DNA of 63,060 nt, the filler included, from Stramenopiles sp. TOSAG23-6 (Eukaryota): the NCBI GenBank assembly GCA_900128565.1. It is 22 parts of 22 records of this genome, joined end to end, with 100 filler letters (N's around TTAATTAATTAA, not from the genome) between each part and the next. Parts side by side here need not be neighbours in the genome. Positions count along the whole stretch, not along the records: positions 25,991 to 28,756 come from LT637829.1; 21 more parts are not named here. One strand, 5' to 3'. The notes under the pieces were generated by a model, which did not search any database, was not told the DNA's origin, and worked only from the letters and a program-made list of their open reading frames with translations. Positions 13,004 through 62,992 of the stretch are shown piece by piece. Positions within the stretch are counted from its first letter, which is position 1. Every line of letters begins with the position of its first letter. The translations under genes and the position numbers were made by a program.

Positions 13004-14278
13004 GTAAAAAATTTATACAAAAAAAAAAAAAAATTAAAAAATTAAAAAATTTTTCGTGTAAAAAAAAAAAAAACATATAACATACAGAAACACTTTTGTT
13101 TTGCTTTTGTTAACTCTTGTTTTAAATTTTGTTCTGAAGCAGCAGATGCTTGGCATTGTAAATGTAACCTCTCTTCATATTGCTGAACTATTCCAGATGA
13201 TGGTAGATGTTGATATCTATTTTTTAAACTCTGAATTGTCGATTGAGCTAACTGCAAATCCGCTTCCGTACCTCGTAACTGCTGAGATAAAGAGTCAGCT
13301 GTTTTTGTTGCTGCAACAGCTTGTTCTTTATTCTCTTTGGCTCTTAACTCTACCATTTCATGTATTTTGAAAGAATATTTCAAAATTTACAAAAAAAAAA
13401 AAATGTTAGGTACAAAATTTTCAAAAAAAAAATTAAAATTTTTTTTTGGTAAANAACCAAAAAAAAAAAAAAAANAAAACATACATATTTTTTTGAAATA
13501 TCTTTGACAAGTTGGCCCAATTTTGTATTGCTTAATTTTTCGGCAGACCATTTTTCTTCAACACTGCAAATATTTTTGTCACTTTCTCGACTTTTTTTCA
13601 AAATTTCTGTCTTTAACTGATTGATTTCACGACCACGAGCACATAGTACTGTATTTTGGAAAAAAATTTCAAAATTTTCTATAAAAAAAAATTCGTTAGG
13701 TACAAAATTTCGTATGAAAAAAAAAAAAAAAACTTCGATTTTTTTTTTTTTTTGGTAAAGAAAAATAAAATAAATAAAATAAAACAGACATGTTTGTGCT
13801 TGAGAATTTTCATTATGTAATCTTTTAATTTCATCCCGCAATGAATTTGTCGTATTCAAATCACTCGAGTGTTGTTTGGATAGTTCGGCATCTAATTCCG
13901 CATTTCGTGACACAATTGTTGCTAATTTCGCTCTTAATTTCGATACTTCCAATCTAGTTTGATGAAGGATTTGACCACGAAGACGTTCAAGTTTTTCTCT
14001 TGTAAGTACATTTCCATCATGTGTATTGATATTATCTTGATCATAGCCTTCAGTATTCCATGAATGATTAGGATTATCAAATTCTATTTCGTCATTTTCG
14101 TCATTTAAATGTCCGAACTCGATTTGATCTTCTAAATCATTAATTTTGGATTGAAGTAATGCAATTGCATTTGCGTTTTCAGCTCTTTCGTTATTAAATG
14201 TGAGAATTTGTGCTTCTGTATGACTTCGGGTAAATTCACTTTTTCGTAGTGCAATTCGGAGTTGTGAGATTCTCTCAA
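11585..14278 (-). CDS. Coiled-coil protein with C-terminal IEMNECGTNT repeats, multi-exon, partial
   Basis: Frames join across introns 13649-13789 (GT-AG), 13360-13484 (GT-AT), 12948-13085 (GT-AG) and 12156-12272 (GT-AT); homopolymer frameshift near 11850. Confidence 0.65.
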
Positions 14279-18356: not shown

Positions 18357-19413
18357 TTACTTAATGCTTAAAAGCATATTAGAAGAATTTCCAGGTGGCA
18401 TATATGTGACATTTCGAGATCTAGCAAGAGTGTGTGCAATCTCAGTGGCAGCATGAATTCTACTCAACTCCAAGAAACCATTTCCATGTGTTTTAATAGA
18501 TTCTCCAAACAATTCCGCGGATTCAGACTCACCTTCAGAGGTTATAATTTTAGCTTTCTTTTCTTGTTCAGATTTTTCAACAATAAATTTTGCACGTTCG
18601 GCTTCCTGCTGTGCAACTTGCTTGTGCTCAATAGCTTTGGTAAACTCTGNACCAAATGTAAGATGACTGTTGTATTAAAAATATTGTCAAACAAAGTTTT
18701 GAAATGAGACATTGAAAATATAAAAGCAAATAGTAAAACACATAATTTGTTGGAGAAATTTTCATAGTAAAAAAAAATAAACTTTAGATTGATTATTGTC
18801 AGAATGTTGGGACCTTTTCGTAATCACTTGTGGGTTGCAACACCCAGTCAGTCGAAAGATGGTTTAATTCCAATCATCATACAATTTTAAATCAAATGAA
18901 AACAATCTCAAAGANTTCGTACGAAAAAAAAAATGAAATACTTTAAATTGGCAATTTTTTGCTATCGTACCAAACAAAAAAAAATCGTTAGGTACGAAAT
19001 TTCGTATGAAAAANAATCGTACCAAACAAAAAAGGGCTCGGGCAGAAATCTCAATCGTTCATCGAGTATTTGTTTGTAGAACAAAAGTCTCAATTAATTG
19101 TGTTGTCGTCAATGCCCTCAATGATTGATTGATGCCATAAATCAAAATAAAAGATCATAAAAATGGAAAATAACACGAAATATTTCAAAATATTTCATAC
19201 AATCTGTACAAAACATTAGGGTTAGGGTTTGTGTAATAATATTACGTACGTAATTGATACATCATCCAAATCAATATGAAATTCAGCACAGCGAGTGGTC
19301 AATTGTTTACGAATATCTTTAGAAACTTCGTCACGCTTCGTTAAGAGCTCTGAAGCAGGATATTGAGCGACTACAGACTTTAAAACTTCATTGCCTACAG
19401 AGGGAAGAACTCT
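18357..19413 (-). CDS. PHB: Prohibitin, last two exons (18357-18666, 19250-~19413); absent from the ORF track
   Basis: [18 protein letters not shown]...[36 protein letters not shown] intron 18667-19249. Confidence 0.92.
18795..18885 (-). ncRNA. Intronic box C/D snoRNA with two LSU rRNA guides
   Basis: Box C ATGATGA, D' CTGA, C' GTGATTA, D CTGA, terminal stem ATTGT/ACAAT; guides antisense to the conserved LSU segments CGAAAGAUGGU and UGUUGGGACC. Confidence 0.88.
19033..19118 (-). ncRNA. Probable intronic box C/D snoRNA with degenerate boxes
   Basis: Stem AGGGC/GCCCT, C-like TTGACGA, D-like CCGA; antisense to LSU CAGAAAUCUC and GUAGAACAAAAG. Confidence 0.6.
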
Positions 19414-25833: not shown

Positions 25834-26078
25834 GTACGTTTTCATCATTCAGTTCAAATTTATTTTTTTTGTACCAAATTTTGTACCTAANNNNNNNNNN
25901 NNNNNNNNNNNNNNNNNNNNNNNNNNNNNNNNNNTTAATTAATTAANNNNNNNNNNNNNNNNNNNNNNNNNNNNNNNNNNNNNNNNNNNNGTTTTATTTT
26001 TTTTNAAANTTTGNTTTTTTTTTCNTACGAAATTTTGTACCTAACGAAAAAACGTTGAAATATTTTTCCAAAATACAT

Positions 26079-27353
26079 TCGATATGTTTTTGGAATGCCT
26101 TTTAATTCAAAAGATCTTGAACGTGCCGGGGCAGCCAATGCGTCTTCAATCTGTCTGTTAAGTTCACATGGTGAAGAGCATCATTTTTATAATGAGAATA
26201 ATTTTCATAATGAATATGGTTCTTCTAATACTATATCTCGCCGAACATCTTCAGTGCGTAATAGCATTTGTAGTAGTAACCCGATTGGTACAATGGGTGT
26301 TATGGGTTCCTTGGTGGGCTCAAATGCAAATAGAATTCACCGCAATTCATGTATCTTTTATTTTTTTTTCAATTTCGAATTTATTTTTTTATAAAAATTT
26401 TGTATCTAACGTTTTTGTTTTTGAAATATTTTTCCAAAATACATCAATGCCTAGTAATAGAAGTAATTCAATGTTAGGTTCTGTGATGGAAGCTGAAAAT
26501 AGTCGTACGGTTGACGCGGATGTTTTAATGTCTTCAATGGAAGTGTACGTTTTTATCATGAATTTATTAATTTATTATTTTTTTCATACGAAATTTTGTA
26601 CCTAACAAATTTGAGTTTTTTTTTTTTTGAAATATTTTTTCACAATACGTTGCAAGTGTTGTTTCGAAGAATTATACACAACATGGAAATACCTCTTTCC
26701 CATCGAAATACACTACAATTAAACGTCCTTTTTGTATCTCAGAGTTACAACATACATCTAATATTCCACTGGCAGTATCAACAAGTGTATCTTTTGTTCG
26801 AGGTATCACACCAGAGGACCGAAGTAAAACTGATTATCTACCAGAAGTTGAAAAGTTGCAACAACATATTAACTCATTTGTTAAAGGTGCATCGTGTTTG
26901 AAAAGTGTCCAAGGTGAAGATACAAATACTTTACCCTTCTTACAACCAGAATATGCTGCCGGGCAAGTGTTTTCTGCAAAAATGATGGACTCATTACTAG
27001 GACAGTTGTTTTATAATTCTGATGTACTAGCTCTAATTCAAGGCATCTTAGGCACAGGTGCTGGATCCAATATCTATCTTTGGGATGTTCATGATATAGT
27101 AAGTCGTAATTCTAACCAAGCCAATAATGAAGAGACAGAATCAAAGATAAATTTACCTTGTTCTAATACTCAAAAAGTTAGAACATACGGTCAATTATTC
27201 CAGAAATTAGTCACACAACCAGAAATAAGTCAAGTTCCGCTCGGCTTATATCGACCTAAAGGTTGTAAAGGGTCTCTTCTACCTTATGTGTGTACAAATC
27301 CGTCGGCGAGTACGCGCCTAGTTCGGGGTGACTGTGTGTATGTTCTCGCATAG
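26079..27353 (+). CDS. Ca-activated (BK/Slo-type) K+ channel, C-terminal RCK region
   Basis: DLERAGAANAS, ISELQH, YAAGQVFS..MMDSLL.Q.FYN, TYGQLF, PLGLYR, YVCTNP, DCVYVL; introns 26351-26444 and 26545-26650. Confidence 0.88.
26351..26444 (+). mobile_element. Introner-like intron, GT...AT
   Basis: CAT|GTATCT...TATCTAAC...CCAAAATACAT|CA; in frame. Confidence 0.85.
26545..26650 (+). mobile_element. Introner-like intron, GT...GT
   Basis: AAGT|GTACGT...TACCTAAC...CACAATACGT|T; GT duplicated at both junctions; restores MEVASVV. Confidence 0.85.
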
Positions 27354-27400
27354 GGATAGTTTTGTTAGACTTTATATTTATTTAATGAAAATCTTTATAA

Positions 27401-27760
27401 TCAAACTGCTAAAACGTTGCCTAATTCACCCGAAGTTTGTAACTTTTCTATTTCTGAGCAACCACCAATTGATTTTCCATTTACGAATAATTTTGGTACA
27501 GTTCTTTGACCAGTTATCCGCTGCAAAGCATCCTGCACTTCTTCCGCAGAAACACAAGTATTCTCGAAGCAAACGTTCTGATTAGTATCACTGAGGTCTA
27601 TCTGTTGAATAAGATTAGTTGGAACATATCCAGATAATATCCCCATCGCGCGAGAGCAGTAACCACAACCCACTTTCTTAAAAAAAACTATATTAGTTTG
27701 AGAGATGAGACCTTGTACAACATCATCGGCATCTCCTATCGAACTTTGCGCCAGGCCCAT
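27401..27760 (-). CDS. Glutaredoxin (dithiol, CGYC)
   Basis: CGYC, TGQRTVPKLFVNGKSIGGC. Confidence 0.95.
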   Translation of the reverse strand: MGLAQSSIGDADDVVQGLISQTNIVFFKKVGCGYCSRAMGILSGYVPTNLIQQIDLSDTNQNVCFENTCVSAEEVQDALQRITGQRTVPKLFVNGKSIGGCSEIEKLQTSGELGNVLAV

Positions 27761-28028
27761 TTTAATTATTAGCTAAACCTAAAAAAACAACAAGTTGTTG
27801 ATGCCGGAGCCCTAACCCTAATTAATAAATTGAATAATTCGAATTGTCGGTTTTTGCCGGTCAACTTTCGTCCATCTTTCGTCCATATATTTAAACATTA
27901 TTTTTCTAGTAACCACTTATTTATGTAAAAGGATCATATTATTACGTGTGTTACCTGATTAGTTCCTCGATAAAATTATTTTAGACTTATCCCTTTAAAA
28001 CTTAGGAGTTTACCTCGCATTTGTAGAG

Positions 28029-28697
28029 ATGGATGGGACGTGGCAAAAAACAGATTCCATGCAAGAGTTACACGACGCTGAAAACGATCCGTGGTCTGTA
28101 GACGATTCTCTTACTGAATTAGAGCGATTCTGTTTATTTGCTAACAGTGGTATTGATTTACAGAGATGGCGTGGAGTTGATATGCTGAAAGATGCGTTGG
28201 AGTCTCATCCAAAAAAAGTGGAGGCTGTAGCTTTGGTACTTCCATTGATAGAACAACTTTCACAGGATAAACATCAGGTAGTCCGACAGCATCTTGCCGA
28301 GCAGCTTCCTGCCGTCGCAATTCTTTTACATGATACACAGCTAGGTGAGTCAGGTTATGAATATATCATCAATGTAATTATACCTACTTTGAAACGTCTT
28401 GTGTTCGATGATGGTAGTAATGCTATTAGCAGTGACAAAGACGAAGACTTCGACTATGGTGATGGCACTCAAGTTCGTACTGCTGCTTGTCATGCTCTTG
28501 TTGCGGTTGCGCGTCTAATAAAACGTGAAGATCTTGTTCCACATGTACTCACAATCGCTCTTCAACTTGCTCATGAGGACTCTCGTGATGAATTGCGAAT
28601 AACTGCTGCTCTTTTAATTAATGCTTTAGCTCCATGGTTGGGTCCAGATATTTGTGCTGAATTTGTAGGACCTGAAACGATTAGTCTTGCTGAGGAT
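28029..28697 (+). CDS. HEAT-repeat protein, PP4 regulatory subunit 1-like, first exon
   Basis: DDSLTELER...VVRQHLAEQLP...QVRTAAC..LV; ends at family donor GAT|GTGTGT (28698). Confidence 0.7.
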
Positions 28698-28917
28698 GTG
28701 TGTTTTATTTTTTTTCAAATTCGAATTTTTTTTTCGTACGAAATTTTGTACCTAACNNNNNNNNNNNNNNNNNNNNNNNNNNNNNNNNNNNNNNNNNNNN
28801 TTAATTAATTAANNNNNNNNNNNNNNNNNNNNNNNNNNNNNNNNNNNNNNNNNNNNCTATATTCATTGTTGTTGGTTACTATGTGGTGGTTGCTAGATCG
28901 TTATTTTCTTTATTCAG

Positions 28918-31544
28918 ATGTTAGAACTTTATCGCTATCTCTGAATCTCAATCTTGCAGCAGTCTTTAACAAATTAGGTCATTGGGAAGATGCAGTCTCT
29001 GCTTCAACAGAAGCGCTCCGTATTGATCACAAGAATGTAAAAGCTTTGTATAGACGTGCTATTGCACGTACTAATTTAGATCTCTATGACAGAGCAAGAA
29101 CAGACCTCGAGAAACTTCTGGAATATAAATCAAATTACAAACCTGCGCTTGACCACCTTCGGAATATTTCTCTTGCACAAGGCGAAACTATTGAACCTGA
29201 TTCTACACATGCAGTTTCGGATGACACTAGTTTAAATGACACAAAAAACTGGGCGAAGGAAATTTCTCCAAAGTTCATAAAGCAAAACATATTCTTAGTG
29301 GGAAAGTTTTTGCAATAAAATTGATCGAAAAGGATAAAATAAAACGAATGCAGATTCGACATCCGAATATGTACGGTTTCCTGATGAATTTCGAATTTAT
29401 TTATTTTCTCATACGAAATTTTGTACCTAACGAATTTTTTTACTATATTTTTTTTCACAATACATACATAATGAAATATTAATGGAAAGAAAGATTTTAA
29501 AACGGTTTTGTAATAAGCATCCTAATATCATCAAATTTTATGGTACATTTCAAGATGAGCATGCTCTTTATTATGTACGTTTTATTTTTTTCAATTTTTT
29601 ATCTAATTTTTTTTTTTTTTGGTAAAAAAATTTTGTACCTAATAAAAACAAATATATATTTTTTCACAGTACATGTCATGGAATATGCTCAAGGAGGAGA
29701 ATTGTGGAGTCATTTGGTTGATCAAAATGACCCTCTGAGACGTCAAATAGGCTGCTCACTTCAAGAAGCTAGATTTTACATTGCGCAGGTTATAAATGCG
29801 TTGGCGTTTATGGGAGCACAAGGAGTTGTTCATAGAGATCTAAAACCTGAAAATATGATGTACAATTTCATGATGAATTTCAAATTTTTTTTTTTTTTTC
29901 TGGTATGAAATTTCGAACCTAACGATTTTTTTTTACGAAAAAAAAAGAAAACAATCTTCACAATACATGATTATTGAGTCAGGACATCTTAAATTGATTG
30001 ATTTTATGACTTGCAAAGATCTCGTAGATCCCGAACTAAATGGACCTGAGTATGTCGGAACTCCGGAATACATGGCACCTGAAGCCATTAATGGAGAAAA
30101 AGGTGATGATGTAAATTGTTCAGCTGATTTATGGTCACTTGGCTGTTTCATATTTCAATTAATTGCTGGTTATCCTCCATTTAAAGGTGGTAGTGATGTA
30201 CGTTTTCATTATTTTTTTGCCTATTTGTTTTTCATATGAAATTTTGTACCTAATAACAAAATTTTTGTAATATTTTTTCACAAAACATTATTTAACTATG
30301 CGAAAAGCTCTTGCAAGACAACTTGTTTTCCCTCAAGGCTTTGATAAAGACGCACAGAATTTAATTTCAAATTTACTTACTTTAGATCCAAAGGAAAGAG
30401 TTGCTCGGATCATGGGTATGCAAGTTGATTCATTGAATTGTGTTGCCCATGAGGAAAAACAACATATGAAAAATACAAAAAATAATACAAAAAATAATAA
30501 AATGAAGGAGAATAGTAATGAAAATGTAACAACGAATCAATATTTTGCTGTAATCAAACAACATCCATTTTTTAACGGAATTTGTTGGGATTCGTTACAT
30601 GATGAAACACCACCACCAATTGATGAATCAGAACTTCAAATTCGCACATTTGAAACAAATATTGATGAGGAGTGTTATGGATACGGAACATTTGCAATCG
30701 ATAATTTTCATAATCAAAATCTTGATAAAAATGTATCGACAATTTCAATGAAACAACGTTTTGCTCTGATGCATAGATTAGACGTAAAAGAAATTTTACT
30801 TCCAAATATGCCTTTATTTTATAAAACGGAAGGTCATTCTCGTTCAGTGTGTGCGAGAAGAAGAGAATATTTAGGATTAGGTAGATTAGGAAATGATTCA
30901 TTTTCAAAAAAGTTTTCTTTTATGTATTTGTCGTTTGATACTCGTGGTTATGATGGAACGGATTTGAGTAAATCTTTATTTCGTTCTGCTATTATGCATA
31001 TTAATGTAAAAAGTCCGACATTTGTTGTGATTTCTGGTCGTCTCATTGGAGCTGCATCAGGAACAAAGAAGTACGACAAACTTGTCTCTGAATTTCATAA
31101 ATTCATTGGTGACATGAATGAAGATATTAATATATGCTTTGTAAGTGGAAATAATACTGGTGGTGAAATTGAATTTTCATCAAATAAATCATCAAATGAT
31201 ATAGAATCAATAACAAATGATTCTTCCCAACAGAAGTATAGTAGATGGTCTAACTCTAACTTAGAGATATATCGTCATAACTTTGGTGATGATTTTTATG
31301 GTATCTGGGTGGGTGGAATTAGATGTTTATTTCTAAATTCTTCACTATGGGAATCTAAATATGAAACTGATGGTCCATCAAAATTGAGCCAAACGTTGCA
31401 CCAAAAAGATCAAATGCAGTGGTTAAAACATGAATTATATGTCGCATCTTTATGTGCTCAACATGTTTTAGTTTTTGCACAACATTCTTTCTTTAATTTT
31501 GGTGCTAAACACACAGAAGATATATTATTACCACTAGAAACTAT
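28918..31544 (+). CDS. TPR + AGC/PDK1-like kinase + CPPED1-like metallophosphoesterase fusion, partial
   Basis: TPR (NVKALYRRA); kinase [41 protein letters not shown]...LFLNS...WLKHEL...VFAQH; four family introns; frameshift near 29245. Confidence 0.85.
29371..29465 (+). mobile_element. Introner-like intron, GT...AT
   Basis: Restores [16 protein letters not shown]. Confidence 0.9.
29575..29674 (+). mobile_element. Introner-like intron, GT...AT
   Basis: Restores [13 protein letters not shown]; a CAG 5 nt upstream of the end would shift the frame. Confidence 0.92.
29860..29968 (+). mobile_element. Introner-like intron, GT...AT
   Basis: Restores [22 protein letters not shown]. Confidence 0.92.
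30198..30288 (+). mobile_element. Introner-like intron, GT...AT
   Basis: Restores [15 protein letters not shown]. Confidence 0.9.
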
Positions 31545-31810
31545 GAACGTTTTATTGTTTTTCAAATTCGATTTTTTTTTCGTACGAAATTTTGTACCTA
31601 ACGAATTTAAGTTTTTTTTTTTNNNNNNNNNNNNNNNNNNNNNNNNNNNNNNNNNNNNNNNNNNNNTTAATTAATTAANNNNNNNNNNNNNNNNNNNNNN
31701 NNNNNNNNNNNNNNNNNNNNNNGTTTTATTTTTTTTNAAANTTTGNTTTTTTTTTCNTACGAAATTTTGTACCTAACGAAAAAACGTTGAAATATTTTTC
31801 CAAAATACAT

Positions 31811-33085
31811 TCGATATGTTTTTGGAATGCCTTTTAATTCAAAAGATCTTGAACGTGCCGGGGCAGCCAATGCGTCTTCAATCTGTCTGTTAAGTTCACA
31901 TGGTGAAGAGCATCATTTTTATAATGAGAATAATTTTCATAATGAATATGGTTCTTCTAATACTATATCTCGCCGAACATCTTCAGTGCGTAATAGCATT
32001 TGTAGTAGTAACCCGATTGGTACAATGGGTGTTATGGGTTCCTTGGTGGGCTCAAATGCAAATAGAATTCACCGCAATTCATGTATCTTTTATTTTTTTT
32101 TCAATTTCGAATTTATTTTTTTATAAAAATTTTGTATCTAACGTTTTTGTTTTTGAAATATTTTTCCAAAATACATCAATGCCTAGTAATAGAAGTAATT
32201 CAATGTTAGGTTCTGTGATGGAAGCTGAAAATAGTCGTACGGTTGACGCGGATGTTTTAATGTCTTCAATGGAAGTGTACGTTTTTATCATGAATTTATT
32301 AATTTATTATTTTTTTCATACNAAATTTTGTACCTAACAAATTTGAGTTTTTTTTTTTTTGAAATATTTTTTCACAATACGTTGCAAGTGTTGTTTCGAA
32401 GAATTATACACAACATGGAAATACCTCTTTCCCATCGAAATACACTACAATTAAACGTCCTTTTTGTATCTCAGAGTTACAACATACATCTAATATTCCA
32501 CTGGCAGTATCAACAAGTGTATCTTTTGTTCGAGGTATCACNCCAGAGGACCGAAGTAAAACTGATTATCTACCAGAAGTTGAAAAGTTGCAACAACATA
32601 TTAACTCATTTGTTAAAGGTGCATCGTGTTTGAAAAGTGTCCAAGGTGAAGATACAAATACTTTACCCTTCTTACAACCAGAATATGCTGCCGGGCAAGT
32701 GTTTTCTGCAAAAATGATGGACTCATTACTAGGACAGTTGTTTTATAATTCTGATGTACTAGCTCTAATTCAAGGCATCTTAGGCACAGGTGCTGGATCC
32801 AATATCTATCTTTGGGATGTTCATGATATAGTAAGTCGTAATTCTAACCAAGCCAATAATGAAGAGACAGAATCAAAGATAAATTTACCTTGTTCTAATA
32901 CTCAAAAAGTTAGAACATACGGTCAATTATTCCAGAAATTAGTCACACAACCAGAAATAAGTCAAGTTCCGCTCGGCTTATATCGACCTAAAGGTTGTAA
33001 AGGGTCTCTTCTACCTTATGTGTGTACAAATCCGTCGGCGAGTACGCGCCTAGTTCGGGGTGACTGTGTGTATGTTCTCGCATAG
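31811..33085 (+). CDS. BK/Slo-type K+ channel C-terminus (duplicate copy)
   Basis: Same as 26079-27353. Confidence 0.85.
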
Positions 33086-33132
33086 GGATAGTTTTGTTAG
33101 ACTTTATATTTATTTAATGAAAATCTTTATAA

Positions 33133-33492
33133 TCAAACTGCTAAAACGTTGCCTAATTCACCCGAAGTTTGTAACTTTTCTATTTCTGAGCAACCACCAA
33201 TTGATTTTCCATTTACGAATAATTTTGGTACAGTTCTTTGACCAGTTATCCGCTGCAAAGCATCCTGCACTTCTTCCGCAGAAACACAAGTATTCTCGAA
33301 GCAAACGTTCTGATTAGTATCACTGAGGTCTATCTGTTGAATAAGATTAGTTGGAACATATCCAGATAATATCCCCATCGCGCGAGAGCAGTAACCACAA
33401 CCCACTTTCTTAAAAAAAACTATATTAGTTTGAGAGATGAGACCTTGTACAACATCATCGGCATCTCCTATCGAACTTTGCGCCAGGCCCAT
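33133..33492 (-). CDS. Glutaredoxin (duplicate copy)
   Basis: Same as 27401-27760. Confidence 0.95.
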   Translation of the reverse strand: MGLAQSSIGDADDVVQGLISQTNIVFFKKVGCGYCSRAMGILSGYVPTNLIQQIDLSDTNQNVCFENTCVSAEEVQDALQRITGQRTVPKLFVNGKSIGGCSEIEKLQTSGELGNVLAV

Positions 33493-33760
33493 TTTAATTA
33501 TTAGCTAAACCTAAAAAAACAACAAGTTGTTGATGCCGGAGCCCTAACCCTAATTAATAAATTGAATAATTCGAATTGTCGGTTTTTGCCGGTCAACTTT
33601 CGTCCATCTTTCGTCCATATATTTAAACATTATTTTTCTAGTAACCACTTATTTATGTAAAAGGATCATATTATTACGTGTGTTACCTGATTAGTTCCTC
33701 GATAAAATTATTTTAGACTTATCCCTTTAAAACTTAGGAGTTTACCTCGCATTTGTAGAG

Positions 33761-34429
33761 ATGGATGGGACGTGGCAAAAAACAGATTCCATGCAAGAGT
33801 TACACGACGCTGAAAACGATCCGTGGTCTGTAGACGATTCTCTTACTGAATTAGAGCGATTCTGTTTATTTGCTAACAGTGGTATTGATTTACAGAGATG
33901 GCGTGGAGTTGATATGCTGAAAGATGCGTTGGAGTCTCATCCAAAAAAAGTGGAGGCTGTAGCTTTGGTACTTCCATTGATAGAACAACTTTCACAGGAT
34001 AAACATCAGGTAGTCCGACAGCATCTTGCCGAGCAGCTTCCTGCCGTCGCAATTCTTTTACATGATACACAGCTAGGTGAGTCAGGTTATGAATATATCA
34101 TCAATGTAATTATACCTACTTTGAAACGTCTTGTGTTCGATGATGGTAGTAATGCTATTAGCAGTGACAAAGACGAAGACTTCGACTATGGTGATGGCAC
34201 TCAAGTTCGTACTGCTGCTTGTCATGCTCTTGTTGCGGTTGCGCGTCTAATAAAACGTGAAGATCTTGTTCCACATGTACTCACAATCGCTCTTCAACTT
34301 GCTCATGAGGACTCTCGTGATGAATTGCGAATAACTGCTGCTCTTTTAATTAATGCTTTAGCTCCATGGTTGGGTCCAGATATTTGTGCTGAATTTGTAG
34401 GACCTGAAACGATTAGTCTTGCTGAGGAT
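33761..34429 (+). CDS. PP4R1-like HEAT protein (duplicate copy)
   Basis: Same as 28029-28697. Confidence 0.7.
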
Positions 34430-34646
34430 GTGTGTTTTATTTTTTTTCAAATTCGAATTTTTTTTTCGTACGAAATTTTGTACCTAANNNNNNNNNNNNN
34501 NNNNNNNNNNNNNNNNNNNNNNNNNNNNNNNTTAATTAATTAANNNNNNNNNNNNNNNNNNNNNNNNNNNNNNNNNNNNNNNNNNNNGTTAGGTACAAAA
34601 TTTCGTACGAAAAAAAAAATCGAATTTGAAAAAAAATAAAACGTAC

Positions 34647-53385: not shown

Positions 53386-54385
53386 ATGCCTGTAAAAAAT
53401 CGTAGTACTATTGTAGAGCCTTGCTATGATGGTGAACAAATACTGCACGTAGTCGAATATGTAAAAAACTCATTGTATTATGTTTGTCTACCCAACAATG
53501 TCTTCCCTCCTAGTAAGAAAAAAGGCGAATGTTGGGTGAGTATTGATAAGCATTTGATTTACAGTCCATTTTTCTTAGATTTTGGTCCTCTTAACATAGC
53601 ACAAACGTTTCGATTTTTTCAAATACTTGGTTCAAAACGTTGGCAAGCGTATTTAGAATTAACGAACAACTCAAAACCTAAAAAAAAGATTTCATCGTCA
53701 AAATCGTCAAAAGGCAAACAAAAAAAAACTTTCAGCGTCGAAAAGCAAACAAAACTGCAAATTCAAATATGTAAAGAAAACGATCAAAGTAGATCATGAT
53801 ATATTTGGAAAGAATGCTATAAACAAAGGAAAGGTGTACTTTTATTCTACAATGGATCCAAAACTTCGTACCAATGCAGTCACTTTGCTCTGTATTTACG
53901 GCACTCTTGTTCTTGTACGTTTTCATCATTATTTTTTTTTTTTTTGGTAAAAAATTTTTCGTACCTAACAAAATTTAAAAAAAAATGAAATATTTTTTCA
54001 CAATATTGGATCTATCCCCAGAAGAAGCTTGTCTTCCTTTTCAAAATTATGAAGAAACGTCAAAACTTCCTTTTGTGAACTTCCACGATCCGACACCTTT
54101 TGACTGTACATGTACGTTTACATCATAAATATTAAATTTAAATTTCGAAATTAAATTTTGAACAAACAAAAAAAAATTAAATTTTTTCAAATTTTTTTTT
54201 CATTTGAAATTTCTTACTAACAAATTATTTGAATTGAAATATTTTTTCAATGCACATACCCATTGTCTATTATTGACTGTGTGCGAGGTGTTAAAAGAGC
54301 AATGAACGATAATTTTTTTAAAATACATAAATTTAATCTTGAGGAATATGAACACTTCGAACGTGTCGAAAACGGTGATCTCAAT
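53386..54385 (+). CDS. CDC14: CDC14-family dual-specificity phosphatase, N-terminal part
   Basis: YSPFFLDFGPLNI, RTNA, SPEEA, DCVRG, FNLEEYEHFERVENGDLN; introns 53915-54008 (GT...TG) and 54112-54257 (GT...AT); A-run frameshift near 53725. Confidence 0.93.
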
Positions 54386-54658
54386 GTACGTTTAAAATTA
54401 ATTTTTTTTTTCATACGAAATTTTGTACCTAACTATTTTTTTTTTGAATTTTTTTTTTTCATAGAAAATTCTGTACCTAAAAAAAAAATTTTATAAAAAA
54501 AAAAANNNNNNNNNNNNNNNNNNNNNNNNNNNNNNNNNNNNNNNNNNNNTTAATTAATTAANNNNNNNNNNNNNNNNNNNNNNNNNNNNNNNNNNNNNNN
54601 NNNNNTACGAAATTTTGAACCTAACAATTTTTTTTTGAAATATTTTTCCAAAATGCAT

Positions 54659-57256
54659 GATTTACATTCGGGCAAATTGTGATGCACAAGCTAGGCGTTG
54701 TATTAATATTTCTCAAGGTTTGAATCCAAATTCTCCAGAAGTCTGGATAGCTCATGTACATTTTCAAAATTAATTCTTTTTTAAAGTTTTTTCGTACGAC
54801 ATTTGTTACCTAACGAATTAAAATGTTTTTTTTTTTTTTCACAATACATGCACGTATTATTAAAAACAATATAACCTTGAACAAAGAAAAAATCTCCGAG
54901 AAACTGATTAATGCGTTTGAATGCGCAACTACAATCCCACCCCCATCGATTACACCATTTAATGCCTTATTTAGTTTGGCTCATTCATTTATTCATGTCA
55001 AAAAGTTTGCTGAGGCAGAAAATCGATTACGTTTACTTTCAATTCGTACGTTTTTCATGATGAATTTCAAATTTATATTTTTTTTCATACGAAATTCCAT
55101 ACCTAACAATTGCTTTTACGAATTTTGTTTTTACATTTTCACAATACAGGTAATCCATGTGGGAAAGTATATATTTTACGTGGTGTTTGTTTACAGTTAC
55201 AACACCGATGGGTTGATGCGTCTGATGCCTTTTTACATGCATTTACATTTTTCAAAAATAATGAAAAGTCGATGAATCTTGATTCAACAGAATTAAATTG
55301 GAGATTTCAACTATTATTGAAATTATCAAAAGAAGGTTTCATTCGTTGTGCTGCACGAATACCTCTCAAATCTAAGACATCTCATATAGTCAATACATTA
55401 GATACACTAGCTACTACAAAGATAGAGCAAGCTGAAGTTGTATGTTGTCCACTTTAATTTCAATTTGAGTTTTTTTTTTTCGTAGAAAATTTCATACCTA
55501 ACAACTTTCAAATTTGACATATTTTTGCACAATACTTGCTTTCGGGAATGAAAACTGGGACCTAGCAGCAAGGTTATACAGTACAATTATATCTGAACGA
55601 AAAAAAACTATAAGTGAAGAAAATAATGCAAATAATTCATTTGTCAATCTGTATATGTCAACTGCTATATCTTTTTTTCTATCAAAAAAGTATGTAGAAT
55701 TCCAAAACATAATCCAAGAAGGTATTGATATATGCAGTAGAAGTACATTTGAAGGATCATTTGAGGGATTAGTTTCATTACTTAAATTGTCTGCTTCTAT
55801 TGAAGCTATTCATGGAAACACTATCAAAACAATTGCGACTGTTAAACAATTAGATGAAATTACTGATACATATAATCCAGAAAATGTAATATTGAATTCA
55901 TTATGCTATCGTACAATATCGAGTGACATAAAAAATGTGTCTTCAATTCTCCAATTATCTCTACGATATTATCCTAATGTAAGTCGATTATGGATATATT
56001 TTGGATATTCTCTCTTATCCTTACCATACGATACAAATAATGATTCTACAGACCAATCGAATATTACAAGAGCAACAAATGCTGCTTTGTCAGCTGCAGA
56101 AACAAGTAAGACAACAAATGAAGAAATTGCAGCGAAATTGTTGTTTGGTGTATGTAACTTTAGAAAAGGATTTTGTCGTGAAGCATCATCAAGTGCTCAA
56201 ATTGTATTACGCAATGATCCGAATAACACAAGTGCTCTTTTACTATTAGCTTTATCCGAAGTATCAAAGAATATTGAATGTAATTCTAAAAAAACAAAAA
56301 ACATAAAAAGAATTGAATTTTCGTGTAATTTATTACAAAGAGTAATACAACAAATGAAATCATTGGATTCATTTACTTTGAAAGATCAAAAGTGTCTTTC
56401 AACAATTCTATGTGTGTCTCAATTATTGAATAGTGAAAACATAGACATCATCATGAATACTGTAAAAGATTGTGATGAAGCAGTGAAACTATTATTTCGT
56501 GCAAGAGCAATTGTTACACATAGTTCTAATGACTACAAGGATGCAATTGATGCTTACTTGTTGGCTACTAAAGCATTAGCTGAAGAATCAGAAGATAATG
56601 AAGAATTAGGTACAGTGTATTGTAACAAAAAATTACATCGACGAGGTCAATTATTTTTAGCATTTCATGAACTTGCTTCGATATATATGAAACATGATAC
56701 CTTACAAAATATAAATTCAAATGAAAATTCTATACGATGCCTTCAACGTGCGGCACGAATTGCTCCAACAAAATTAGGTAAAGCTGTATCCTATACTCAA
56801 CTTTCTCTCCTTCATTTTGATGCATTAAAACGATTTAATATGACAAAAAGCTCAAAACAAGGTATACAAGCCATTAACAAAGCGATGAAACAATTTTTTA
56901 TTTTAGGTTGTACATCTTTCAACAAAAAATGTATGGAGGAAAATGGATTAAAGAGTGAATTTCTAATGGATCATCAAGACATCATTAGTTCTCAATCTTC
57001 TATAGAATCAGCATCATTATCTTCAACTTTAGTTGCAAAAAGTTTTTTTTCTGAAGGGTCTTGGGATGATTTTACTACCATTATTTCTGCCAGTCGAAAA
57101 TTTCTTCATTTTAGCTGTCTTGCTAAATGTAAACTTCAAAAAAAAAAAAGTTTTCCAGATACATCGGAAACTGTGATGATGAATATTATTGAAAAATTAT
57201 TGTGTTTTTGTGGTAGTGCAAAAAGTAGACAAAATTCTTCAGAACCGAGATGGTAA
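54659..57256 (+). CDS. TPR protein, SKI3/TTC37-like C-terminal part
   Basis: SQGLNPNSPEVWIAHA and further TPRs; in frame across introns 54756-54849 (AT), 55046-55149 (AG) and 55440-55537 (TT). Confidence 0.65.
55046..55149 (+). mobile_element. Family intron with canonical GT...AG ends
   Basis: TTC|GTACGT...TACCTAAC...CACAATACAG|GT. Confidence 0.88.
55440..55537 (+). mobile_element. Family intron, GT...TT
   Basis: GTT|GTATGT...TACCTAAC...CACAATACTT|GCT; TT duplicated at both junctions. Confidence 0.85.
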
Positions 57257-58905: not shown

Positions 58906-59127
58906 TAGGAAAAAAATTTCGTACAAAAAAAAAAAAAAAAAAAAAAAAGAAAAAAAAAAGCATTTTAAATTCATAATGAAAACAAACATGTGCCTTCATT
59001 CTATTGACTTGTTTCATTTGTATTTGTACTTGATACAATTTTTTCATAATTTTATTTTTCACATATTCAATAGCTATTTGTCTTCTGACTTTATTTACAT
59101 CTGTAGCAATCCAAATAGATATATACT
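58379..59127 (-). CDS. Hypothetical multi-exon gene fragment
   Basis: Three short exons separated by poly(T)-expanded family introns join in frame. Confidence 0.4.
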
Positions 59128-59207
59128 GTATTGTAAAAAAAAAATTTTTTTTTTTAAATTTTTTTTGTTAGGTACAAATTTTCGTACAAAAAAAAAAAAA
59201 AAAAAAA

Positions 59208-59243
<36 letters not shown>

Positions 59244-59302
59244 GTAATTTTGTACTTAACCGAAAAAAAAAAAAAAAAAAAAAATATTTTTTCACAAAAA
59301 AT

Positions 59303-60135
59303 GTTTGCGACAGAAATTCAGCTATACAAAGACGAAAATGTAAATATATCAAACATTCCCATGTATCGTAATAACACGGCATGCTGTGATTTGATCTCAC
59401 TAAAACATAAGAAATTTCTTGGTATTTTTCCAATATTAAATGATTTATGTACAACACGAAATACGAGACATTCAAGTGCAGAAAATTTCGTGTCAAATTT
59501 AACTAAAAAATTTGGTAGAAAAAAAGGATTTTTTTTTGATGCACAAACTAAACAAGTAAAACAAAGTTCAATGTATTTTTATGGAGATTTTCGAAACCGA
59601 CAAAGCTTTTCAATTGTTCATTATGCACGAGATGTTAAATATGATGTATGTTTTTTTAAAAAAATTTTAAAAAATTTTTGAAATTTTTGAAATTTTTGAA
59701 ATTTTTTTTTTTTTTTTTCGTACGAAATTTTGTACCTAAACAAAAAACAATTTAAAATTTTTTAAATTTTTTAAATATTTTTTTTTACCATACAGGCCAC
59801 TCAATTTATTGTAAAAAATATGGACAAAGTTCCTCCACAATTATTTGAATTATGTAAAAATAGTTCACAAACATTTATGAAAACATTGTATACTACAAAA
59901 AATACAAAAAATACAAAACATACAAAAAATACAAAAAATATAAAAAAAATATTAGGTACAAAAAATGGTACAAAAAATATAAAACAAACTTTAGTATCAA
60001 AGTATATGCACCAATTAAAGTCGTTAATCAATACATTAGATAATACAACAACACACTATATTAAGTGTATAAAACCAAATAATATTAATTTTAGACCAAT
60101 TGATGGAAGAGCCAGTTTTGATGTATGGAAAATAT
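59303..60135 (+). CDS. Myosin motor domain fragment
   Basis: GIFPILND, FSIVHYARDVKYD|ATQFIVKNMD, THYIKCIKPN; family intron 59646-59795 (GT-AG). Confidence 0.9.
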
Positions 60136-61464: not shown

Positions 61465-61558
61465 GTATGTTTTATTTTTTTTTTTTGTATGAATTTTTTT
61501 TTCGTACGAAATTTTGTACCTAACGAATTTTTTTTTGAAATATTTTTCCAAAATACGG

Positions 61559-62992
61559 GAGGGGCCAATGCTCAAATGGCTTTCGATATATTTCAGAATA
61601 TTTTAAAATCTGGCGAAATTGAGTTCTCGCATTGTACTATACTGCTGAAAACGTGTACTACATCCCAAGATACGCTTAGTGTATGTTTTTTTCACATTTT
61701 TTTTTCATACGAAAATTTGTACCTAACAAACATTTAAAAAAAAAAAATATTTTATTTTTTTTGAGTGATTTTTCTTTCCTCCTGAATTTCAATTTTTTTT
61801 TTTTCCAAATTATTTTTTTTTTGTAAAAACTAACAAAAACATTACATTTTTGAAATATTTTTTTCAATATATTTATTAAATTCAATAAAATCTTCAAAGA
61901 GTCCGTTTTTAGATAGGCAATTAATTGATATAATGTACAGTAAATGTTGTAGTGTAAGTACATTATCATCAGGTGTATCAACTAATCAAACCCTAACCCT
62001 ATCAGAGAATCATATGACTCAAAATTTGTACCACAATTTTCGTATACAAAAAAACATTTTGCTACAAAACCAAGAAAATTTCGATGTTTCATTGAATTTT
62101 GACAAACACAATGGTACAATAATGAATAATAAAAATGGTACAATAATGAATAATAAAAACACAATTAAAACACGGACAAAACGACACATCAACCCTAACC
62201 CTAAACATATAAATTCCCAAATTGATATTTTATACAACACCATAAAAAAACGGTCTCGTAATAACCCTAAAAACCCTAAAAACCCTAAAAACCCTAAAAA
62301 CCCTAAAAACCCAAATACAATAACAATTTTGAAAAATGTCTTATATGATATACGATGTAACCCTAACCCTAATGCTTCTTCGTCGATGCTTGGAAAAAAA
62401 GATTATAGAAAACTTTTATACTTGAGTGGTTTTTTTGGATTGTATTCTGATGTAGGTTTCAAAACTGTTTCTTTCCCTACATTTTTTTGTATAGTAAATT
62501 TCGTACCTAACAAAATTTTTTTAAAATTTTGAAAAAAAAATTTTTTACCTACATTTTTTTTTATAGTAAATTTCGTACCTAACAAAATTTTTGAAAATTT
62601 TTGAAAAAATATTTTTCCACAATACATGCAAAATATATTTTAGATATTATGAAACTTCGTCATGTAATTCCTGGTGCTGAGCATTTTAGTGCATTGGCCC
62701 AACCAATATTAGAAAAAAACACTCACATGGATGGATTTGTATTGAAACTATTTGAGGAAATGTGTACGTTTTCCTAACCCTAACCTAACCCTAACTTTGT
62801 ACTACATTTTTTTTTTCATACGGAATTTTGTACGTAACGAATTTTTACTAAAAAAAAAAATATATATATATATATATTTTTTCACTTTATATGCGTTGGT
62901 CCATGCATTATTGATGATCATGCTGTCATGCTTGCTCTTCGTGCTTGCAAGGGATTCTCGAATGGTGTCGCATCACGAAAAGCAATGGACAT
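61559..62992 (+). CDS. PPR-like helical repeat protein fragment, 4 exons
   Basis: AKYILDIMKLRHVIP, LKLFEEM, LALRAC; in frame across introns 61681-61872, 62452-62627 and 62764-62892 (all GT...AT). Confidence 0.55.

Follow-up and report, generated by a model that had tools for sequence, protein, structure and literature searches.

The 106-nt element flagged in the window (the whole 63,060-nt stretch of Stramenopiles sp. TOSAG23-6 DNA that was analysed, assembly GCA_900128565.1) belongs to a family of genome-wide introns of about 100 nt. Its members have been copied as whole elements, carry a two-base target-site duplication, are spliced in the GT...NN register, and start with a sequence complementary to an altered U1 RNA. 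The family is real and is best read as transposon-derived non-canonical introns like those of Fritillaria, but with a changed U1. Probably it is a non-autonomous introner that takes its acceptor from the target duplication, with exact restoration of the mRNA and a host U1 that matches the element.

The window comprises 22 contigs of about 2.8 kb each, separated by N spacers, from a eukaryotic assembly of 21.1 Mb in 6,236 contigs. Positions 25991-28756 recur at 31723-34487. Duplicated and self-inverted contigs (this pair, C13/C14, C1695-C1706 and C2384-C2389) inflate genome-wide counts, and family copies are frequent contig break points. In a tree of ATP synthase beta (one gene, 33 sequences), the organism grouped with Incisomonas marina and other marine sequences (support 0.94). 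It is probably a MAST-3-like stramenopile, a provisional placement because the tree is based on a single gene. A second, lower-scoring small-subunit rRNA match (L076, G000:C137:3115-4595) is possibly organellar or bacterial.

A 17-mer spanning the branch motif of the family had 4,487 exact matches in the genome and none in a reversed control; as the assembly holds duplicated contigs, this figure is not a copy number. Copies were collected from a 682 kb sample made up of the window and further genome stretches, about 85% of it coding. Their ends were placed by position-weight matrices (PWMs) from which both dinucleotides were excluded. From 474 branch candidates, 183 passed into the strict set and 210 fell below the score limits, the rest being truncated, N-containing or duplicates. 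The reading frame was kept in 175 of the 183, and these 175 form the base for dinucleotide counts. The window itself holds 18 strict frame-preserving copies, 12 of them AT..AT, as the original prediction had it for most copies.

Table 1. Positions of the flagged intron, its host gene and further family copies in the window.
Feature	Position	Strand	Basis
Upstream duplication copy GT, final two bases of the exon	26543..26544	+	Sequence; register from family statistics, homologues and RNA contig
Flagged element, 106-nt GT...GT intron of the family	26545..26650	+	PWM boundaries; frame restored
Donor GTACGTTTT, complementary to the altered U1 5' end of this genome	26545..26553	+	U1 comparison
Branch-point motif TACCTAAC, putative branch A at 26605	26599..26606	+	Family motif; canonical U2 pairing box
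Downstream duplication copy GT, putative acceptor	26649..26650	+	3'-end alignment of the family
Last exon of host gene, C-terminus of Slo/BK-type potassium channel gating ring	26651..27353	+	PDB match, E = 1.8e-10; spliced frame open
AT..AT neighbour copy in the same host gene	26351..26444	+	Frame-preserving strict copy
Flagged element again, through assembly duplication (one locus, no independent copy)	32277..32382 (approximate, by offset)	+	Contig duplication
TT duplication (TT at 55438-55439) and copy 55440-55537 ending ATAC-TT	55438..55537	+	Sequence
Family copy, TT upstream, TG end	53915..54008	+	PWM boundaries
Family copy, TC upstream, AG end	55046..55149	+	PWM boundaries
Family copy in myosin head gene, AT upstream, AG end	59646..59795	+	Homology; PWM boundaries
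Family copy, AT upstream, AG end	13649..13789	-	PWM boundaries
Family copy, GT upstream, GG end; frame closed, boundary and function uncertain	61465..61558	+	PWM boundaries
Region of a protein kinase gene; AT..AT copies at 29371-29465, 29575-29674, 30198-30288 and another at about 29870-29970	29371..30288	+	Family copies

Excision of the flagged copy joins open frames of the potassium channel gene. The range first given for it, 26543..26650, marked a real copy and took in the upstream GT, which lies outside the element. The 3' end reads ATAC-GT as predicted; the start is GTACG, not the predicted GTAT, so that the inverted repeat of this copy is 3 bp. The GT..GT flanks noted here and the TT..TT flanks noted for 55440-55537 can be read directly from the sequence. 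From the alignment of family 3' ends we infer that the GT at 26649-26650 is the acceptor. An in-frame AG 6 nt downstream is a candidate alternative; of 164 non-AG copies, 50 (the flagged one among them) have such an AG within −45 to +15 nt and 114 do not. The flagged copy showed no notable fold (z = −0.37).

The splice register was supported by reading frames, homologous proteins and RNA. After removal of the element, 176 of 188 copies of a first set had an open frame; with the 3' end moved by 1-2 nt the number fell to 75-80. Each register implies its own residues wherever the upstream and terminal dinucleotides are unequal, and the homologues fitted GT...NN in all three informative alignments: methylcrotonyl-CoA-type carboxylase beta (I), fumarase (M) and XPC (V versus I). 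A fourth alignment (signal peptide peptidase) ended before the junction. A 94% identical ATP synthase beta agreed with the GT..AT-spliced translation. A-starting copies had AC ends more often (3 of 10 versus 2 of 165 others, p = 0.0013), as the pairing of the first and last intron bases in the spliceosome would lead one to expect.

Four sequencing runs were compared with L045:5960-10000. RNA contig X9 record 28 skipped the 101-nt copy at L045:9317-9417, with 0 other letters and flanks of 113 and 55 letters, and its junction is the mRNA predicted for GC/GT...GT/GG (slashes mark splice boundaries); this RNA support is one metatranscriptome contig of depth 4.4, from one study, at a locus other than the flagged copy. 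Frames, homologues and this contig agree that splicing out the element together with one duplication copy restores the coding sequence, as had been proposed and as is characteristic of introners. Unspliced family sequence also occurred in RNA runs X6 and X8 and represents pre-mRNA, retention or DNA. A search for empty sites in DNA run X3 found the element present at all six sites reached, among the matches listed. In relatives, ATP synthase beta crosses the intron site as one open reading frame on contigs of 7.5-31.8 kb, a comparison made at protein level.

Upstream and terminal dinucleotides were equal in 126 of the 175 strict copies (92.1 expected), 106 of which were AT..AT. The excess persisted among copies without AT at either end (20 of 29, 6.0 expected), after exclusion of both AT and AG (16 of 23, 6.2 expected; maximum 15 in 50,000 permutations) and among GT/TT/CT alone (14 of 15, 6.6 expected; p = 8 × 10−5). 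AT stood upstream of none of 19 copies ending in GT, TT or CT, compared with 114 of 156 others (p = 2 × 10−10). The repeat was exactly 2 bp, the match excess being absent at −3, −4, +1 and +2. The predicted recurrence of the bases before the donor thus holds beyond any preference for AT when run on the 682 kb sample, and a 2-bp target-site duplication whose 3' copy serves as acceptor is borne out by these counts. Three other arrangements were rejected: a duplication of 3-4 bp or one extending beyond the acceptor (no excess), a palindromic target (−3 versus +1 within each copy, 41 matches versus 49 expected), and a TG...CA element lying between A and T without duplication (the second-last base tracks the upstream base).

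Among the 175 copies the upstream dinucleotides were mainly AT (114), GT (20) and TT (16); AT ended 138, and the AG acceptor of U2-type introns ended 11. The donor classes listed were GT (155), AT (10), GC (5) and GG (3). That the acceptor is whatever was duplicated proved true in part: after GT, TT or CT, 14 of 39 copies matched, and 22 ended in AT. Matches after these targets were commoner in consensus-like copies (8/14 versus 6/25, p = 0.08), a weak age trend that fits later end conversion without proving it. TG and GG ends follow TT and GT upstream, respectively, suggesting T to G changes of the last base. Four of the 175 copies have the context AG/GT..AG and resemble ordinary old sites.

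The 5' and 3' subfamily tags were linked (55:15 versus 1:28, p = 1 × 10−12), and because this linkage spans the element, whole elements must have been copied. Together with the 17-mer matches it places many related intron-forming copies in unrelated genes, another introner trait. Median pairwise identity was 73%, and 54 of 156 copies had a neighbour of at least 90% identity after homopolymer compression. The first 100 of 109 matches to a near-identical young subfamily had GT (53), AT (30) and TT (17) upstream; removal of 16 same-coordinate duplicates by hand left GT 47, AT 20 and TT 17, CT being outside the search. This spectrum differs from that of the general sample given above (p = 2 × 10−14), and the young subfamily prefers GT/TT targets.

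A held-out set of 40 of these 100, favouring TT and AT cases, was reduced to 33 when seven were dropped (one truncated, four duplicates, two without a scored end). The end equalled the upstream pair in 23 of the 33 (10.4 expected) and in 16 of 21 non-AT copies (9.7 expected, p = 0.0013), with AT..AT, GT..GT and TT..TT coexisting; some mismatches look like assembly chimeras. Because ends match the upstream pair within one subfamily, the terminal dinucleotide tracks the target and is not inherited. In this set, as in the dinucleotide tests, a splice site co-opted from a target-site duplication is seen, as in introners. Inheritance by core-matching recombination had been raised by a clustering of GT-ending copies (12 versus 2.6 neighbours, p = 7 × 10−4, post hoc), and was ruled out by this tracking.

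Several further peculiarities of copies were recorded. CCCTAA telomere-like repeats occur within some of them (window 62764-62892; L009:8928-9056; L010 at about 2616 and 2008; L189 at about 2678), and CCTAAC is common to this repeat and the branch motif. The branch-motif unit is internally duplicated in 13 of 175 strict copies; copies with a doubled unit include window 54380-54500 and 62452-62627, L018:3212-3383 and L040:9168-9347. At 59121-59302 and 18930-19030 of the window, inverted fragments lie back to back with a branch motif on each strand, either real rearrangements or amplification chimeras. Short or altered genic copies without the usual branch motif (L066 at about 89, L218, L017 at about 624 on the minus strand; one of them is in fumarase) imply possible alternative branch sites.

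One head-to-tail cluster at L068:9-645 (G000:C1146; duplicate C6122) holds the U5, U2, U1 and U4 genes. The U1 5' end reads AAACGUACAUG, compared with the Rfam consensus AUACUUACCUG, and each of the three changes is complementary to CAT/GTACGTTT. The base substituted at position 9 (C to A) lies opposite the last exon nucleotide, which the duplication supplies. Over the 175 donors, this U1 forms a mean of 9.0 Watson-Crick pairs out of 11 (10.0 with G-U), versus 6.8 for the Rfam consensus, and its change is presumably functional. Stem-loops I and II of U1 also diverge from the consensus. The Rfam search yielded one U1 gene and its duplicate (E = 8 × 10−12, 54 bits, below the 69.5 cut-off). The canonical U1 11-mer had 7 matches versus 10 in the reversed control, which is chance level, in an incomplete assembly from which a canonical U1 could be missing. 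As the altered U1 pairs with exon-terminal AT, splicing itself offers a further reason why AT precedes the donor, and its frequency there may stem from target choice as well as from pairing with U1.

The U2 branch box and U5 loop 1 equal the Rfam consensus, and the U6 ACAGAGA box is present. Donor-U1 and branch-U2 pairing and the presence of U1, U2, U4, U5 and U6 point to the major spliceosome. U12 and U6atac had no matches in the assembly in a weak search whose controls were also silent. U2AF1 was not found on the 8 contigs examined out of the 11 with zf-CCCH matches. When metagenomes were scanned for a 16-mer from the altered U1, 107 stretches matched, none carrying the snRNA cluster or the family motif.

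Terminal inverted repeats of MITEs measure about 10 bp or more. Perfect end-to-end complementarity here extended over 5 bp in one copy, 4 bp in 62, 3 bp in 45 and 0-2 bp in 67, with terminal position 5 complementary in 1% of copies. With an inverted repeat of no more than 4-5 bp, reaching 4 bp in about one third of copies, the MITE label is not supported. The suggested ISL2EU affinity fared no better. In the relevant passages of PMC4482050, ISL2EU elements have GG termini, terminal inverted repeats of 6-259 bp, an A/AT/T target, THAP-DDE and YqaJ open reading frames, and occur in animals only. The 2-bp AT duplication is common to both, but the family ends in GTAY...ATAC and also duplicates GT and TT, with C (33%) or A (25%) at −3 and G (49%) or T (23%) at +1, and its host is no animal.

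An autonomous partner, sought with PF13359 and PF02992 only in the incomplete assembly, was not found. Two distinct DDE_Tnp_4 loci are present, a Harbinger and a lone open reading frame, and DDE_Tnp_4 matches in this incomplete assembly came without THAP or YqaJ matches. The intact-looking PIF/Harbinger of 3,107 bp (L185:503 to L070:2914; G000:C2432, four identical contigs) has a GGCC-type inverted repeat, a TAA duplication, a transposase and a convergent second open reading frame; its ends and duplication rule it out as the partner. A short degenerate family copy with branch motif lies between its two open reading frames (L070:1045-1095, minus strand). The other locus is an intron-less open reading frame without clear ends (L069:392-1651, G000:C4153). 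It was rejected as partner, having only weak AT-rich inverted arms (about 215-234 and 1684-1703) and no subterminal sequence in common with the family; the arms include GTAT and ATAC, probably by chance. A Transposase_21 profile search of the assembly gave no match. The long elements with the same termini that the original prediction looked for did not appear either: none of 107 donor sites examined begins one.

The probable course of events would be as follows. Donor (GTAYGTTTT), branch motif and pyrimidine tract would all come with the element, which would insert at an NT dinucleotide and thereby duplicate it. A DDE-type transposase acting in trans with a staggered 2-nt cut may have mobilised it, such an enzyme being the most plausible origin of a duplication fixed at 2 bp. 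The major (U2-type) spliceosome would cut before the first G of the element and after the downstream duplication copy, yielding the exact mRNA. In exons, the survivors would be sense insertions with a tolerable acceptor. Later, presumably by selection after insertion, an A would tend to replace the second-last base, or a G the last one, so that YAT ends prevail and YAG ends form a minority. The host U1 would have changed to pair with CAT/GTACGTTT, the commonest duplication plus the element start. More tentatively, and with confidence somewhat short of even, we propose that the major spliceosome of this lineage has become tuned to the footprint left by a single mobile element (from CAG/GT...YAG/ to CAT/GT...YAT/, with U1 changed even opposite the last exon nucleotide), that this element represents a so far unclassified group whose duplications measure 2 bp, and that target preference shifted between waves, the young subfamily being rich in GT and TT.

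The same duplication and splicing could have arisen without a cut-and-paste transposase, if intron copies (RNA-derived or DNA) patched staggered 2-nt breaks or an unknown recombinase acted. We regard this as rather unlikely. The negligible inverted repeat, the partner not found, the 13 copies with internally duplicated branch units, the differing target spectra of subfamilies, and the occurrence of 175 of 183 strict copies in sense orientation in open frames all fit such an origin. However, concentration in exons is partly expected in a sample that is about 85% coding, a fixed length of 2 bp fits a fixed-stagger enzyme, and the partner search covered two transposase families in an incomplete assembly. 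A very improbable reading is an element with its own AT acceptor, inserted without duplication after AT or NT in a context favoured by U1, the apparent duplication being coincidental. It would account for the 22 of 39 copies that end AT after GT, TT or CT, and for the pairing of U1 with exon-terminal AT. It leaves unexplained the 14 of 15 GT/TT/CT matches, the absence of such ends after AT (0 of 19), and three targets with matching ends inside one subfamily.

Homogenisation of old introns by selection for long splice signals, with no new insertion, seems extremely unlikely. It is compatible with copies fixed in another population (DNA run X3, at the sites reached among the matches listed), a median identity of only 73% and the four AG/GT..AG copies, but not with linked tags, near-identical copies in unrelated genes, the duplication itself, or the uninterrupted ATP synthase beta of relatives, compared at protein level on 7.5-31.8 kb contigs. 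A register two bases upstream (AT...AC, minor-spliceosome-like) gives an identical mRNA where AT flanks both sides, and is hardly credible at all: copies exist after TC, CT, AA and GC, homologue residues and the RNA contig contradict it, the donor fits the altered U1 in the GT register, and U12 and U6atac, as weak evidence, gave no match.

Few features of splicing are as strongly conserved as the AG acceptor and the U1 5' end. Thousands of introns here appear to end in AT, GT or TT, with an acceptor taken from the footprint of a mobile element, and U1 carries matching changes that Fritillaria, the best-known case, does not have. Gene models built on the GT-AG rule will be wrong here. Sister MAST-3 lineages could tell whether the spliceosome changed before the element entered or adapted after the invasion, and the young and old subfamilies form a natural series for acceptor evolution. 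A literature search found no report of GT-AT introns or altered U1 in MAST-3 or other stramenopiles, nor of this combination of features; introner tables in the supplements of PMC9860276 and PMC12130899 might list the organism, and most subscription papers were outside its scope. The intron passages of PMC5778133 do not mention non-canonical splicing.

By analogy, the family appears to work like the introns of Fritillaria and introners of the Chrysochromulina type. According to the pertinent sections of PMC13326754 and PMC11282704, F. borealis and F. pellucida have MITE-derived non-canonical introns removed by the U2 spliceosome, in which the 3' end repeats a short stretch that precedes the donor, AT being the commonest 3' end. 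In these tunicates, however, three bases (YAY) are repeated, most donors are AG and there are many intron classes, whereas the stramenopile has a 2-bp repeat, GT donors and one family. The U1 5' end is strictly conserved and U2AF duplicated in Fritillaria; here U1 differs at three pairing positions. Introners of the Micromonas/Chrysochromulina type, in the parts of PMC9860276, PMC12130899 and PMC11282704 that describe them, have 3-4 bp duplications, which supply AG in the Micromonas example, whereas 2 bp supply AT, GT or TT here. In Entamoeba and Mastigamoeba, the U1 5' end is likewise altered to complement an atypical donor (bioRxiv 10.1101/2022.06.08.495308). The Entamoeba change affects the recognition sequence for such a donor; the genomes concerned are poor in introns, and the passages in question mention neither a non-AG acceptor nor a duplication; both were found here, and one U1 change (position 9) faces the last exon base. 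New in this family are the altered U1 alongside canonical U2, U5 and U6 boxes and the preference of the young subfamily for GT/TT targets.
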